Assembly: GCF_003018255.1 (NCBI RefSeq)
Contig: NZ_CP027440.1
Source of the DNA: Escherichia coli
Lineage (GTDB): Bacteria > Pseudomonadota > Gammaproteobacteria > Enterobacterales > Enterobacteriaceae
Strand: one strand, 5' to 3'
DNA: 64,000 nt
This document shows positions 15,807 to 23,044 of this stretch, piece by piece. Numbering within the stretch: the first letter of the stretch is position 1; each line of letters opens with the position of its first letter. The position numbers and the translations under genes are program-made. A model generated the notes under the pieces. The model had not been told where the DNA came from. It saw only the letters and a list, made by a program, of their open reading frames with translations, and searched no databases.

Positions 15807-16487
15807 TTAGCGCAAAATTCCATACTCACTGCACAATAACCATTTCACCGGTTCATCTTCTTCTATCGCCGGAAAACGTCCTCCCGGCTCAAGAAAATAA
15901 TTATCGTGTTGGTCATCATTTACCATCGAGATTTCCCAGCCGAGAACAAACGCTTTTTCCGCCCAGAAGCGATGATACAGACGCGGCGGCAGGCAAATGC
16001 CCTGCCCCGGCTTTAGCACCAGCGTTTCACCAGGTTTCATGGTACGCCGCTGACCATCAACACTCACGGTAATGACTCGTTGATCATCACAGAGATTGGC
16101 TTCGTTGGCCCAGGCCAACTGCATGCATAAGTCTCCACCGCCCCGATTGAGGATATCTTCCATTTTGTGGGTGTGAAAATGCCAGGGAGTCTGCTGATCT
16201 TGTTGGATCTGCAACATTTTCTCAGCATACGGTTTTGGATATGCCGCCGACCCCAGCGCGCCGTTGCGCATCGTTAGCAGTGTTAGTCCCGTTTGGTTGA
16301 AATCACCACGACCAAAATCGGTGATATCCCAACCGAGCTGTAAGTCGACCACTTCTTGCCAGTTATCCCGTTCCCGCTGCAGCCAGTCATCCACCGTAAA
16401 ATAGGCGAACTCTGGCAAACAAACGCGGAAGGTCTGCGCAATGGCATGTGCTTTATCAATAACATAATTAATTTGTGAACGTTTCAT
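15807..16487 (-). CDS. Cupin-superfamily protein (sugar isomerase-like), last gene of frz-like operon
   Basis: His-containing cupin-like motifs (WHFHTHK…, …YHRFWAE); ATG at 16487 with GGAGA RBS; track ORF extends to a GTG at 16526. Confidence 0.7.
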   Translation of the reverse strand: MKRSQINYVIDKAHAIAQTFRVCLPEFAYFTVDDWLQRERDNWQEVVDLQLGWDITDFGRGDFNQTGLTLLTMRNGALGSAAYPKPYAEKMLQIQQDQQTPWHFHTHKMEDILNRGGGDLCMQLAWANEANLCDDQRVITVSVDGQRRTMKPGETLVLKPGQGICLPPRLYHRFWAEKAFVLGWEISMVNDDQHDNYFLEPGGRFPAIEEDEPVKWLLCSEYGILR

Positions 16488-17400
16488 TGGCTTCTCCGTT
16501 GCGCATAGCAAGCCAGGCAGCGCCACGCATTCCGCTACTGTCGCCGTGCTGTGCTTTTACAATGGGAGTGGTGAATTGATCGGTGAAAACCAGTGGAGCG
16601 ACTTCTGCGTTCAGATCGGTGATAAGCAGTTCCACATTCGAAAGCCCGCCGCCGATCACAATCACGCCAGGGTCAACAACATTAACGATGGTTGCCAGCG
16701 TGCGGGCAAGCTGTTGGCGAAAACGTGCCACCTGCTGCATGGCACAAGCATCACCACGTTGTGCCAGGGTGACAATCGCCGCAGGAGTGAGCAAGTTACC
16801 AGTCATCTGTTGATAGCGTTCACTAAAACCGCTGCCGGAAACAAACGACTCCACGCAGTTGTGTTTGCCGCAATAGCAACTGACTGATGGACCATCTTCC
16901 TGCTCCGTATAGCCTGGCAACGTGATATGACCGCATTCGGCAGCATTTCCCCAGGCCCCTATAAACGGTCGTTGCTTGATGGCAATGCCACCGCCGCAGC
17001 CCGTACCAAGCGTAATACCAAATACCACGTCATAATCTTGCCCGGCACCGTCGCAAGCTTCTGATAGCGCGAAACAGTTACCATCATTGGCTATCACCAC
17101 CGGTTGCCCAAGCAATTGCTGCAAATCAGCCTGTAACGCATGACCGTTAATCACCTGAATATTCGCGTTTTTAATCAGGCCAGTGAGTGGCGAGATACTG
17201 CCGGGTAAGGCGATCCCTGTCAGCATCGGTCGTTGAACGTCCCGCCTAATCTGCTCGATAAGCGCCACAACGCATGAGACAAATTGTTGATATGTCGACT
17301 TTTGCGTCGGGCAGCGGTAACGGCGAATCTCCCAGCCATGCGCATCCATGACAACGGCGGCGATTTTGGTCCCACCAATATCCAACCCCAGATAGTGCAT
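16468..17400 (-). CDS. ROK-family sugar kinase
   Basis: LGLDIGGTKIA N-terminus and CYCGKHNCVE zinc motif; ATG at 17400. Confidence 0.85.
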   Translation of the reverse strand: MHYLGLDIGGTKIAAVVMDAHGWEIRRYRCPTQKSTYQQFVSCVVALIEQIRRDVQRPMLTGIALPGSISPLTGLIKNANIQVINGHALQADLQQLLGQPVVIANDGNCFALSEACDGAGQDYDVVFGITLGTGCGGGIAIKQRPFIGAWGNAAECGHITLPGYTEQEDGPSVSCYCGKHNCVESFVSGSGFSERYQQMTGNLLTPAAIVTLAQRGDACAMQQVARFRQQLARTLATIVNVVDPGVIVIGGGLSNVELLITDLNAEVAPLVFTDQFTTPIVKAQHGDSSGMRGAAWLAMRNGEANETFTN

Positions 17401-17447
17401 ATCTCGTTCCTTGTTGCGTAAAAGGCGGGTCACCCCGCCCTTCTGGC

Positions 17448-18308
17448 TTAGTACAGTGATGCTTTACCGAGCGAACCGAACAGTTTCATTTTGTGGCGAA
17501 TGACTTCCCGCGCCGCGTTAATCGCATCCGGATAGATGACGTTCGGGTCCCACCAGCTCTCTTTAGCGAGAATTTCACGCACTTTCTGGAAATAGGCGTA
17601 TTTCATATCGCTGGAGATATTGATTTTGCCGACGCCGAGCGTAACTGATTCAGCAATCTCCGCGTCCGGGTTTGCCGAACCACCGTGTAGCACCAGCGGA
17701 ATATCAATACGTCCGGCAATGTCGCGCAAAATGTCCATTTGCAGCTTCGGCTGCATCCCTTTTGGATAGATGCCATGCGCTGTACCAATCGCCACAGCCA
17801 GTGTGTCGGCACCTGTACGAGCAATAAAATCGGCGGCCTGCGCCGGATCTGTGTAGGTCACTTGTGAAACACCACCTTCTACCGACGTTCCTGTTTGTCC
17901 GATGGTTCCCAGTTCACCCTCAACCGATACTCCAACCGCGTGAGCGAGGCGAACCACTTCTGCGGTCAGCGCCACGTTTTCTTCATATGGCAGCAGCGAA
18001 CCGTCGATCATTACTGAGGTAAATCCGCAGCGAATCGCACGCAAAACATGCTCTACAGAGGCACCATGATCGAGGTGCAGTACAAACGGGATCGGACTAC
18101 GCTGGGTAATTTCGCGAACGTGAGCGAAAAAGGCATCGCCCACAAAATCATGTTCGCTGGGATGGATGGCAATAATCGCCGGAGTATTTGTCGCTTCTGC
18201 TTCATCCACGACTGCGCGAAGGAAACAGTTATCCGCCACATTAAATGCGCCAATGGCAAAGCCGTGCTGGCGGGTAGGTTGCAGTAATTCTTTCATCGAA
18301 ACTAACAT
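17448..18308 (-). CDS. Class II ketose-1,6-bisphosphate aldolase (GatY/KbaY/FbaA-like), paralog 2
   Basis: 286 aa with LHLDHG and GTAHG motifs. Confidence 0.85.
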   Translation of the reverse strand: MLVSMKELLQPTRQHGFAIGAFNVADNCFLRAVVDEAEATNTPAIIAIHPSEHDFVGDAFFAHVREITQRSPIPFVLHLDHGASVEHVLRAIRCGFTSVMIDGSLLPYEENVALTAEVVRLAHAVGVSVEGELGTIGQTGTSVEGGVSQVTYTDPAQAADFIARTGADTLAVAIGTAHGIYPKGMQPKLQMDILRDIAGRIDIPLVLHGGSANPDAEIAESVTLGVGKINISSDMKYAYFQKVREILAKESWWDPNVIYPDAINAAREVIRHKMKLFGSLGKASLY

Positions 18309-21170: not shown

Positions 21171-21196
21171 TCGTCATACCTCATAAAATTCTGACA

Positions 21197-22750
21197 TTAA
21201 ATTTCAACGACCCGAGATGTCGCATGATGTAATTTTTCCGTAATCACCATTTCAGTGACCCGCTTAATATCGGCATCATTAAAAAAAGCGGTAACATAAG
21301 CGACCGGCATAGTGACTGTAGGCAAATTAATGGTCGAAATAATCAGTTCGATATTGTCAGGCAAAACCTGTGATAAATTCGCTGCTGAAATAACATCAAC
21401 AATCGTCCATTCAGGAAATGCTCGCAGAATACGGCTTTTCAGTAGATGCGAAGTTCCGATTCCGGTTGAACAGACCAGTAATACGCGTTTACGGGCAATT
21501 TGCCGCTCCATCGCAGCCTGAAAATGAACGGTCAGGTAACCTACTTCATCCTCGCTCACTGCATTCTCACCCCAGGTTTTAAATACCTGATTCACCACAT
21601 ATTGCGTCAACCGCCAGACATCCGCTAGTTCTGCTTTAATATCTTCCAACAATGGATTACGGATATGAATACGATAATTTAGTCGGTTAATCAGCGGTTT
21701 AATATGCACCAATAAGCCATCATATAATGCGCTGTCTTCACTAAAATCGCAGTCCACGATGTCACTGAATACCGTAATTAAACGCCAGGTAATCAGACGC
21801 GCTTCATTGCTGGCCTGCATATGTGAAATAATGCTAACATCTTTTTGTCCATCAATCGCCACACCTGATGAAATGATATATTGATAAATAAACCAGACTT
21901 CATCATCGGGCAATGTATGTGCAATTCGTTGTTCTATCTTATGAATCATCTGACTGGCAACATTAAAGATATTTTCATCATATTGCCTGGTTTGTTCTTC
22001 TTCTCTTGATAACGCATTCCCGTGCGTGTTGCGATACATCATAATAAGGATATGAGTAAAAATGTTAACGTAATAAGGTTCTCCCAAAGACCAACTTAAT
22101 TCATTTTCCATATCCAGTAACAATGACTGGACAAATAACACCTCTTCTTCTCCAAAATAATGGACTAATGCTTTATAGCTTCCGGGATCCAGACGTGAAT
22201 ACACGACACCTTGCGGCTCATTATGGTTAATAATGCCGTTAATCAGTAATGCCATTGCCTGTCGGACTTGCCCTTCACTACCTTCAATATGCGTACCACT
22301 TGGACTGCGGATCAACGATAACCCCAACGGCGCAAGCCAGGACTCAATTACTCTCAGGTCATTAACAATAGAGGCTCCGCTGATAAAGTAGCGTTCTGAC
22401 AATTTACTGATCGACGTTTCATTCGGTGTTTCACTTAATAACTGCGACGCTATTTTAACACGCCTGGCATTATTCATTACACCATCAATCTCTTCACATT
22501 CTGCCACCAACAAATGATCAAGATGCAGCAAATCAGCAATATTCTCCGCACTTAACATCACACCCGCGCCAGCACGCTTCTCAACATTTATTCTCCATTG
22601 TCCCAGCCATTGCTCAAGTAAACGTAAATCACGTTGAATGGTTTTTTCCGAAACATTTAAATAACCGGCAATCGTAACAATAGTCGTATATTCCCTTCGA
22701 GGTAAAAGGAATCGTAATAATCTGTTTTGTCGCGAGGTAATCATTTGCAT
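21197..22750 (-). CDS. PRD-containing transcriptional regulator (MtlR/LicR-type)
   Basis: 517 aa: N-terminal HTH, central PRD-like region, C-terminal EIIB/EIIA-like parts; first gene of the operon. Confidence 0.8.
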   Translation of the reverse strand: MQMITSRQNRLLRFLLPRREYTTIVTIAGYLNVSEKTIQRDLRLLEQWLGQWRINVEKRAGAGVMLSAENIADLLHLDHLLVAECEEIDGVMNNARRVKIASQLLSETPNETSISKLSERYFISGASIVNDLRVIESWLAPLGLSLIRSPSGTHIEGSEGQVRQAMALLINGIINHNEPQGVVYSRLDPGSYKALVHYFGEEEVLFVQSLLLDMENELSWSLGEPYYVNIFTHILIMMYRNTHGNALSREEEQTRQYDENIFNVASQMIHKIEQRIAHTLPDDEVWFIYQYIISSGVAIDGQKDVSIISHMQASNEARLITWRLITVFSDIVDCDFSEDSALYDGLLVHIKPLINRLNYRIHIRNPLLEDIKAELADVWRLTQYVVNQVFKTWGENAVSEDEVGYLTVHFQAAMERQIARKRVLLVCSTGIGTSHLLKSRILRAFPEWTIVDVISAANLSQVLPDNIELIISTINLPTVTMPVAYVTAFFNDADIKRVTEMVITEKLHHATSRVVEI

Positions 22751-23044
22751 TTTTTACCCTTATCACAGATTAAGAAGCCCCATATGGAAGAGCTTCAGTT
22801 GCCATCTCTGAGGGTAAATATAAAGCAGAATAATTTCACAACAATACTAAAATCTGTCCGTAATCCGGACAGTGATAAAACAAAGCAAGGCGGTTAAGGG
22901 ATATTTTTCAGCACAGATCACATTTTCGTGATGAATAATCGTGATCATGCTCGCAAATACGATGGAAGAAATATTTATTACCAGATGTGAGATTATTTAC
23001 CGGATACGACACAAAACCATTCGTATCCGGCATTCTTCAATAGA

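Follow-up and report, generated by a model that had tools for sequence, protein, structure and literature searches.

The closest described relative of the locus studied here is the frz operon of extraintestinal pathogenic Escherichia coli (ExPEC), reported from the avian strain BEN2908 and corresponding to c4481-c4488 of the uropathogenic strain CFT073 (Rouquet et al., J Bacteriol 2009). The frz operon of BEN2908 is annotated as genomic region GR27 ("yicH..yicI", 7227 bp; PMC12928451). The CFT073 genes form an eight-gene set described as "PTS system, fructose specific" (PTS, phosphotransferase system); F11, 536, UTI89 and E2348 carry it, and 042, SMS-3-5, K-12, HS, O157:H7 and Shigella lack it (PMC2831201). 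In later papers, frz is said to help cells survive in late stationary phase, with oxygen restricted, in serum and in the gut, and is associated with virulent strains (PMC12928451, PMC8777976, PMC6727828, PMC6238794). It is also said to favour the ON orientation of the type 1 fimbrial switch, with more type 1 fimbriae (PMC8777976, PMC6727828), and a review describes the genes as "transcribed in one operon" (PMC8777976). We analysed a 64-kb window of E. coli DNA (contig NZ_CP027440.1; "the window" denotes this whole stretch), in which a cluster of eight genes between yicH and yicI has the same locus, genes and order as the published operon and differs from it by allelic differences only.

PTS routes that end in a class II aldolase include FruBKA, the D-tagatose PTS of Klebsiella and Bacillus with TagK and GatYZ, and the routes with GatY/KbaY. 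The frz cluster shares with the fructose, tagatose and galactitol routes a fructose-family EIIABC made of separate polypeptides and Zn aldolases of the GatY/KbaY/FbaA family. Unlike them, it has no PfkB-type 1-phosphofructokinase, tagatose kinase or GatZ/KbaZ partner, and it carries instead a pair of catalytic-type aldolases along with a ROK kinase and a cupin isomerase. The cryptic K-12 systems frv, frw and fry also contain fructose-family EII components, and EIIC and EIIB of frz give sub-threshold matches to these equivalogs. They are nevertheless not orthologues of frz, since the scores lie well under the cut-offs and both enzymes and regulator differ. The frz regulator, FrzR, resembles the PRD activators of Firmicutes (MtlR, LicR and ManR, and their Mga/AtxA relatives) in its two N-terminal helix-turn-helix (HTH)/Mga domains, two PRDs and an EIIB(Gat)-like domain with a cysteine, and like them it is encoded together with the PTS that it presumably controls. 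Unlike MtlR, LicR and ManR, FrzR (517 aa) comes from Enterobacteriaceae, lacks a C-terminal EIIA(Mtl)-like domain and has Tyr291 in place of one canonical PRD histidine.

We conclude that the cluster is the published frz operon of ExPEC, and as such already known. The wider reading, in which this operon is a single transcription unit whose promoter lies within the 294 bp downstream of yicI and would encode a PTS-fed catabolic route under the control of FrzR, we hold to be very probable.

The cluster between yicH and yicI is the frz operon

All coordinates refer to the window, and gene starts follow the PGAP annotation of CFT073. Eight consecutive open reading frames (ORFs) on the minus strand occupy 15807-22750, between yicH (14030-15763, plus strand; 577 aa, annotated as AsmA-family protein YicH in matching genomes) and yicI (23045-25363, minus strand; 772 aa, 1430 bits to the alpha-xylosidase NCBIfam equivalog). 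The stop codons of yicH and yicI lie 7,281 bp apart, a distance filled by the eight genes and a 294-bp upstream region (22751-23044), whereas in K-12 MG1655 yicH ends at 3832166 and yicI at 3832219, leaving a spacer of only 52 bp. A model-made first-pass annotation of the window was thus right to describe a minus-strand cluster of eight genes and about 7 kb between two genes that are adjacent in K-12. Its interval, 15807-23044, is the exact span of the frz genes with their upstream region; the sequence truly missing from K-12 runs from 15764, directly after the yicH stop, to about 23006. The right limit is set there because a hairpin directly after the yicI stop (23007-23036, CCGGATACGA-N10-TCGTATCCGG, strand not assigned) has a counterpart in the K-12 yicH-yicI spacer (CCGGGTACG-N7-CGTACCCGG) and marks the right edge of the presence/absence difference.

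Identity to CFT073 amounted to 99.1% over 9 kb including both flanks and to 99.3% over the island alone, and the encoded proteins were 98-100% identical to those of c4481-c4488. The frz sequence of APEC O1:K1:H7 (avian pathogenic E. coli) was 99.6% identical to the window, while the closest complete genomes were strain A36 for the island and DETEC-S792 for the selC side, both at 99.8%. The published frz primers (PMC6238794) match exactly at 22345-22326 (minus strand) and 21503-21522 (plus strand), both inside the regulator gene, and the product predicted in the window, 843 bp, is the same as the published amplicon. Together with the BEN2908 locus, these comparisons bear out the match to ExPEC frz that the first-pass annotation had drawn from composition and location. 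The link to fitness under stress that it had named is likewise reported in citing papers (PMC12928451, PMC8777976).

The first gene of the cluster, frzR (21197-22750; this and the seven following genes are on the minus strand), encodes the predicted PRD-containing activator. Pfam domains of FrzR were found in the order HTH_11/Mga HTH (7-63), Mga HTH (100-169), PRD1 (209-294), PRD2 (324-413) and EIIB-like (422-498), the PTS_IIB match of the last being weak (E = 1.9e-4). Pfam detected neither an EIIA (PTS_EIIA_2) nor a CAT RNA-binding domain, and the protein ends after the EIIB-like domain. When the PRDs are aligned to LicT, three of the four canonical positions hold histidines (His233, His349 and His409) and the fourth holds Tyr291, and the EIIB-like domain contains Cys427 in the motif CSTGIGTS; we regard His233, His349, His409 and Cys427 as candidate phosphorylation sites. 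An antiterminator of the BglG/SacY/LicT type was considered and rejected, as an HTH stands in the place of the CAT domain and only the PRDs align to LicT. By its domain content FrzR is therefore classed as an Mga/MtlR-like activator and not as the BglG-type antiterminator that PGAP names.

The three genes that follow encode the PTS. They comprise a fructose/mannitol-type EIIA (20700-21170; 156 aa; TIGR00848, 127 bits against a cut-off of 103.5) with its active-site His67 in HIAIPHG, a fructose-type EIIB (20368-20682; 104 aa; TIGR00829, 100 bits against 76.85) with its active-site Cys9 in AACTAGIAHT, and a fructose-family EIIC (19252-20343; 363 aa; TIGR01427, 311.5 bits against 157.55). Next come two predicted class II aldolases. 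Aldolase-1 (18389-19240; 283 aa), the more divergent of the two, has intact LDHG (Asp81, His82), GTAHG (His178) and LHGGSG (His208) motifs; all of its NCBIfam matches remain under the equivalog cut-off (best TIGR01859, 212 bits), and it matches PDB entries 7ncc and 1gvf with E values of about 1e-40. Aldolase-2 (17448-18308; 286 aa) is assigned to the class II (Zn) ketose-bisphosphate aldolases, with 525 bits to PRK08185 (cut-off 405), E values of about 1e-58 to PDB 1rv8 and 7ncc, and intact LDHG (Asp80, His81), GTAHG (His178) and LHGGSA (His208) motifs. Both carry the Zn-ligand set of class II (PF01116), that is, the Asp-His pair of LDHG and two further histidines.

Gene 7 (16468-17400; 310 aa) encodes a predicted ROK-family sugar kinase with a DIGGT ATP motif (Asp7) and a CYCGKHNC zinc motif (from Cys175). 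The protein has no N-terminal HTH, which fits a kinase and not a repressor; its top NCBIfam match is fructokinase PRK09557 (318.7 bits, cut-off 443), and it falls under every equivalog cut-off. The gene overlaps by 20 nt the last one of the cluster (15807-16487), which encodes a 226-aa cupin of the D-lyxose/D-mannose isomerase family (PF07385). The metal-ligand positions of this cupin are kept (His103, His105, Glu110 and His172), and its metal-binding motifs align with those of the D-lyxose isomerase PDB 3kmh (E = 1.4e-64). With 271.7 bits against the NCBIfam equivalog NF051472 (cut-off 350), it is a family member with a predicted activity. NCBIfam, Pfam and PDB thus agree with the gene list of the first-pass annotation (PRD regulator, EIIA, EIIB, EIIC, two class II aldolases, ROK and cupin). 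Its labels for the cupin and the regulator were right as far as they went and can be narrowed to a D-lyxose/D-mannose-isomerase-family protein and an Mga/MtlR-like activator.

All eight ORFs are intact, with catalytic and phosphorylation motifs kept. In transcription order, the genes are separated by 26, 17, 24, 11, 80 and 47 nt, followed by the 20-nt overlap. Downstream, 10 nt past the last frz stop, a terminator-like hairpin (15772-15797, minus strand; a 9-bp stem with 6 GC pairs, followed by CCTTATTTTT) sits between the convergent yicH and frz. The short gaps, the overlap, a single conserved upstream region and this single strong 3' terminator indicate that the eight genes form one operon.

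Distribution and age of the frz module

The frz island (at least 80% of its length) was found in 1601 of 5426 complete E. coli genomes, about 30%, and the description as strain-specific accessory content therefore stands. Identity to the window ranged from 98.2 to 99.8%, with 1319 genomes at 99% or above and 288 at 95-99%. Carriers belong mostly to extraintestinal pathogenic lineages and include CFT073, Nissle-type strains and APEC O1:K1:H7. A 9-kb query was contiguous with both flanks in 1602 complete genomes, and therefore the island resides at the yicH/yicI locus in essentially all carriers. Of 1611 frz matches in the collection of E. coli genomes, one lay on a plasmid record. The frz-less genomes sampled across the ranking all showed the same junction span of 1771-1772 bp, which points to one empty-site allele. 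Partial copies occur in five genomes; in strain HS-02, where frz was deleted independently, what is left is the promoter region with the initial, frameshifted 266 bp of frzR, and yicH is 9 bp shorter.

Outside E. coli, a scan of one genome per species by exact peptide words of FrzR yielded 21 loci, absence elsewhere being only suggestive, and cluster positions were mapped by tblastn. The whole cluster lies between yicI and yicH in an Escherichia cryptic lineage (95-100% amino-acid identity to the window), in nine Citrobacter species or strains, in Phytobacter ursingii and in two Superficieibacter. Phytobacter diazotrophicus, Kosakonia sp. S29 and one Enterobacteriaceae metagenome-assembled genome keep the yicH side next to frz, and a Klebsiella aerogenes-type contig has the order yicJ, yicI, frz, three extra genes, yicH. 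Synonymous divergence (dS) between the window and Citrobacter, Phytobacter, Superficieibacter and Kosakonia is 1.0-2.9 for frz and 0.9-2.1 for the flanking yicH, yicI and xanP over the same genera. E. coli also has a second class of frz allele (strain 15.TR.026_OXA), which stands 1.87% away from the window in frz and 1.7-1.8% in the flanks; its flanks are equally distant from K-12.

The ORF list and domain search revealed no integrase, transposase or tRNA at the junctions between yicH and yicI, and no repeats bracket the island. A 13-nt perfect inverted match (18377-18389 and 20541-20553) is about what chance would give in 7.5 kb by a rough estimate. The tRNA gene selC lies 4 kb from the island, beyond yicJI. 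A genomic island carried by an integrase or targeted to a tRNA was rejected for lack of mobility ORFs, an edge tRNA or flanking direct repeats. Since other genera have the module in synteny, its divergence matches that of its flanks, and mobility genes and repeats are missing, we think it probable that frz is an old enterobacterial module resident in the yicH/yicI interval, and that its absence from K-12-like E. coli most likely reflects loss. The word "inserted" in the first-pass annotation would then have the direction wrong.

Several observations weigh against such old residence and would suit a different history, in which an ancestor of phylogroup B2 (and of a second lineage) acquired frz by homologous recombination through yicH/yicI, the donor being another Escherichia or enterobacterial lineage, and the 52-bp spacer of K-12 is ancestral. 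The operon is missing from K-12, O157 and Shigella as well as from reference strains of phylogroups F (SMS-3-5) and D (042) (PMC2831201), and the sampled frz-less genomes share their single junction. In the 100 nt beside each junction (15700-15763 and 23007-23100) the window diverges from K-12 by 7% and 15%, compared with 1-3% further out, as expected of recombination edges. The three 5' genes, frzR, EIIA and EIIB, are AT-rich (GC 0.41-0.44 vs 0.49-0.56). The module also occurs at other loci: in Kosakonia arachidis it adjoins mltB and srl, outside yicH/yicI; in Raoultella it stands at an unrelated locus; and in a Salmonella/Citrobacter-like contig, in which yicI and yicH are adjacent, all eight genes lie upstream of yicJ beside an N-terminal integrase fragment and an insertion sequence (IS) remnant. 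The frz module has thus also moved horizontally, yet it remains beside yicJI in this last contig.

On the other side, in the GC comparison already named as a check in the first-pass annotation, the low GC of EIIB (0.42) and EIIA (0.44-0.50) is common to all genera and for this reason is no sign of recent import. The raised divergence at the junctions is also expected from an old presence/absence polymorphism and fits this or old recombination edges alike. The E. coli junctions lack mobility genes and repeats, the module occupies the same interval in at least five genera, and its dS to those genera is saturated and equal to that of the flanks, so that none of them is a recent donor. Within E. 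coli, frz diversity equals flank diversity. On balance we consider acquisition by the B2 ancestor somewhat unlikely.

Residence is accompanied by constraint. All eight frz genes are under strong purifying selection, with ratios of nonsynonymous to synonymous divergence (dN/dS) of 0.006-0.12 against Escherichia sp., Citrobacter, Phytobacter, Superficieibacter and Kosakonia. The tightest constraint is on EIIC, with 94-97% amino-acid identity between genera and a dN/dS of about 0.013. The ROK gene is cleanly missing, leaving a spacer of 49-53 nt between aldolase-2 and the cupin, in most frz clusters of Citrobacter, Superficieibacter and Buttiauxella, and it is present in those of Escherichia, Kosakonia, Phytobacter, Raoultella, one Citrobacter and the Klebsiella aerogenes-type contig. 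Because most Citrobacter versions do without it, the ROK kinase appears to be a dispensable or optional part of the module.

One could read this loss of the ROK gene in several genera, the deletion remnants, the variable presence and the lack of a known substrate as signs of a cryptic, decaying fructose-like PTS operon without present function, like frv, frw and fry of K-12. The selection data already contradict such decay: all frames are intact in the 1601 genomes at 98.2-99.8% identity, purifying selection is strong, and the regulatory DNA is conserved. Mutant phenotypes have also been published, as stated in citing papers (PMC12928451, PMC8777976). We therefore regard a cryptic operon as highly implausible.

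Conserved upstream and intercistronic elements

The region upstream of frzR was aligned across 13 loci from at least seven genera. Invariant blocks are separated by unalignable sequence, even though dS between these loci exceeds 1. Kosakonia arachidis has mltB in place of yicI as the upstream gene and still keeps the blocks, which therefore belong to frz and not to yicI. A predicted sigma-70 promoter (22817-22845, minus strand) combines a -10 box TATATT (22822-22817) inside the invariant block TTATATTTA with a weak -35 box, TTGTTG/ATTGTT (22845-22839), inside the invariant block ATTTAGTATTGT. It scores under the threshold of a consensus promoter scan. Transcription is predicted to start near 22810, giving a leader of about 60 nt, and a further conserved block, TAAGGGTAAA, lies ahead of the frzR ATG.

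A palindrome, CTGTCC-GGATTAC-GGACAG (22854-22872, minus strand), is centred about 53 nt upstream of the predicted start and also appears terminator-like in a pattern scan. Its arms TGTCC/GGACA are invariant in all genera, and we propose it as a candidate FrzR operator. No second copy was found in the 64-kb window at 7- or 8-nt spacing, including upstream of yicJ. Further upstream, the alignment shows a conserved box, AAAATGTGATCTG(T/C)GCTG (22907-22926, minus strand), which contains a TGTGA half-site, and a CRP-like site, TGCGAGCATGATCACG (22940-22955, minus strand), which forms an TTTGCGAGC-N3-ATCAC block and matches 8 of 10 consensus positions. The CRP-like site is conserved across genera and near-perfect in Superficieibacter (TGTGATCGCTATCACT). 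Matches to the CRP consensus are not enriched in the window (22 observed vs 25 expected), and the support for this site is its conservation.

In the proposed arrangement, FrzR would bind the palindrome just upstream of the weak -35 box, and CRP would help from the upstream site. Two details sit poorly with it. The palindrome spacer is 7 nt in Escherichia and 8 nt elsewhere, a 1-nt difference that is awkward for a dimer operator, and the CRP-like site is some 137 nt upstream of where transcription is predicted to begin. Nevertheless, cross-genus conservation supports the placement of the promoter in 22751-23044 made in the first-pass annotation, and we infer that this 294-bp region holds a FrzR-dependent, CRP-assisted sigma-70 promoter of frz.

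Two leader-based alternatives were set aside. A structured E. coli frzR leader (fold z = -3.1), which would mask the ribosome-binding site, has a fold that is not conserved in other genera. Antitermination in the leader, with a ribonucleic antiterminator (RAT) and terminator, was rejected as the leader has no conserved structure and the hairpin lies upstream of the predicted -10 box. In Citrobacter youngae, the frzR leader carries an insertion of about 90 nt between the -10 box and the ribosome-binding site, which duplicates the TTAATCTGG motif and looks like a small repetitive element.

Within the operon, the spacer between the two aldolase genes (18309-18388, minus strand, 80 nt) is conserved as well. 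In 11 loci from at least seven genera, 43 of 81 alignment columns are invariant, and in 8 loci the mean column identity is 88%, compared with 72-84% for the adjacent coding DNA, whose synonymous sites are saturated. RNAalifold predicts an imperfect stem-loop with a covariation term of about zero, and an Rfam search of 15700-23100, which includes the spacer, gave no match even at E <= 1. A sigma-54 promoter (TGGCA motif) was rejected for want of the -12 GC at the required spacing, and a small ORF because reading frames are not conserved. The spacer could be an undescribed cis-acting RNA or DNA element, acting as a protein, small RNA or ligand site that sets aldolase-2, ROK and cupin separately from the PTS half of the operon, but we consider this a long shot. 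After aldolase-2, the 47-nt spacer contains a GC hairpin, GGCGGG-GTGA-CCCGCC followed by TTTT (17420-17439, minus strand), whose stem is kept across genera while the loop varies; it precedes the ROK and cupin genes and may act as a partial terminator or stabilise the mRNA.

Elsewhere in the window, the selC tRNA-Sec gene (27048-27138, plus strand) is followed by a RhuM-family gene and a hypothetical gene (27193-29300, GC 0.34-0.41), where K-12 has yicT and setC. The segment forms a small, variable islet at selC, a classic insertion site; the window has no integrase beside selC, and 15.TR.026_OXA has one at the same spot. Rfam further assigned the istR small RNA (44440-44569, minus strand, 150 bits) and a ROSE_2 RNA thermometer (54819-54891, minus strand, 96.6 bits), both ordinary core features of E. 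coli.

A proposed catabolic role for frz

From the gene content, we propose that phosphoryl groups would pass from phosphoenolpyruvate through EI and HPr to His67 of the frz EIIA, then to Cys9 of EIIB and finally to a fructose-like hexose entering via EIIC. The sugar phosphate would be brought to a ketose-1,6-bisphosphate, or would already be a ketose-1-phosphate, and one of the two Zn class II aldolases would cleave the ketose phosphate to dihydroxyacetone phosphate (DHAP) and a triose. The corresponding free sugar would be fed into the same pool by the cupin isomerase (aldose to ketose) together with the ROK kinase. FrzR, as a regulator of the Mga/MtlR/LicR type, would be switched on when HPr phosphorylates His349 and His409 of PRD2, and in the absence of substrate it would be held off through phosphorylation at Cys427 or His233 by its own PTS (EIIA/EIIB).

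The enzyme set does not fit this route at every step, and the misfits count against it. There is no PfkB (1-phosphofructokinase-type) kinase in frz, and ROK kinases normally act on free sugars, which leaves the bisphosphate step without an assigned frz enzyme. The sugars handed over by a PTS are phosphorylated, whereas the family of the cupin isomerase is known for unphosphorylated ones. The second phosphate might be supplied by the host enzymes FruK or Pfk. Alternatively, the aldolases might cleave a ketose-1-phosphate directly, or the cupin might act on a sugar-6-phosphate. Direct cleavage has a parallel in YdjI, a member of the class II aldolase family that cleaves ketose-1-phosphate and is among the PDB matches of both frz aldolases.

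Relatives of the cupin occur in other settings. The D-lyxose isomerase of PDB 3kmh/3mpb, which we take to be Z5688 of E. coli O157:H7, belongs to the same PF07385 family and shares about half of its residues with the frz protein, the frz copy being PTS-linked. Unlike the latter, the relative P0088 (247 aa, 49% identical), considered as a candidate Z5688-type protein, stands beside an ATP-binding cassette (ABC) sugar transporter and a Salmonella relative (62% identical) beside a major facilitator superfamily (MFS) transporter. An unrelated Salmonella cluster combines an MFS transporter, an epimerase, Lyx_isomer, F_bP_aldolase, PfkB, ADH and DeoR. By analogy, it shows that both families can be used in a scheme from aldose to ketose to ketose-phosphate to DHAP and aldehyde, and its pairing of isomerase and aldolase therefore supports placing the frz cupin and an aldolase in one pathway. 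Among more distant relatives of the cupin, the genomic contexts (ABC, MFS or none) gave no pointer to a substrate of frz, and a literature search gave no useful match for a described operon of PTS, aldolase, ROK and lyxose isomerase, nor for Z5688.

We know of no growth substrate reported for frz, which leaves room for a mainly sensory role, in which the Frz PTS together with FrzR would signal the sugar or energy status to other genes (the fim switch, possibly yicJI) at minor carbon flux. The published phenotypes are stress fitness and the ON orientation of the fim promoter (PMC8777976, PMC6727828), and the title of a companion paper ties the neighbouring yicJI operon to fitness; frz also lies beside yicJI in most genomes, even when it is on the other side of it. 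However, all four enzymes keep their catalytic motifs at dN/dS of 0.006-0.11, EIIC retains its cross-genus identity of 94-97%, and the window offers no second candidate operator, including upstream of yicJ. We therefore find a mainly sensory frz unlikely and retain the PTS catabolic model with FrzR control.

In avian and human extraintestinal E. coli, frz serves as a virulence-associated marker. What the present analysis contributes is incremental, namely cross-genus synteny, an optional ROK gene, a corrected regulator class, a footprinted promoter and a conserved intercistronic element, and it leaves the classification of frz as known accessory content unchanged. Automatic annotation mislabels the predicted frz activator as an antiterminator. 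The cross-genus footprints, comprising the palindrome, the CRP-like site, the -10 box and the intercistronic element, offer concrete targets for experiments, and if the 80-nt spacer did act as a cis element, it would, together with the promoter palindrome, provide a handle on what frz senses. Seen as a conserved enterobacterial unit at a fixed site, frz makes it useful to ask why K-12-like lineages would have lost it.

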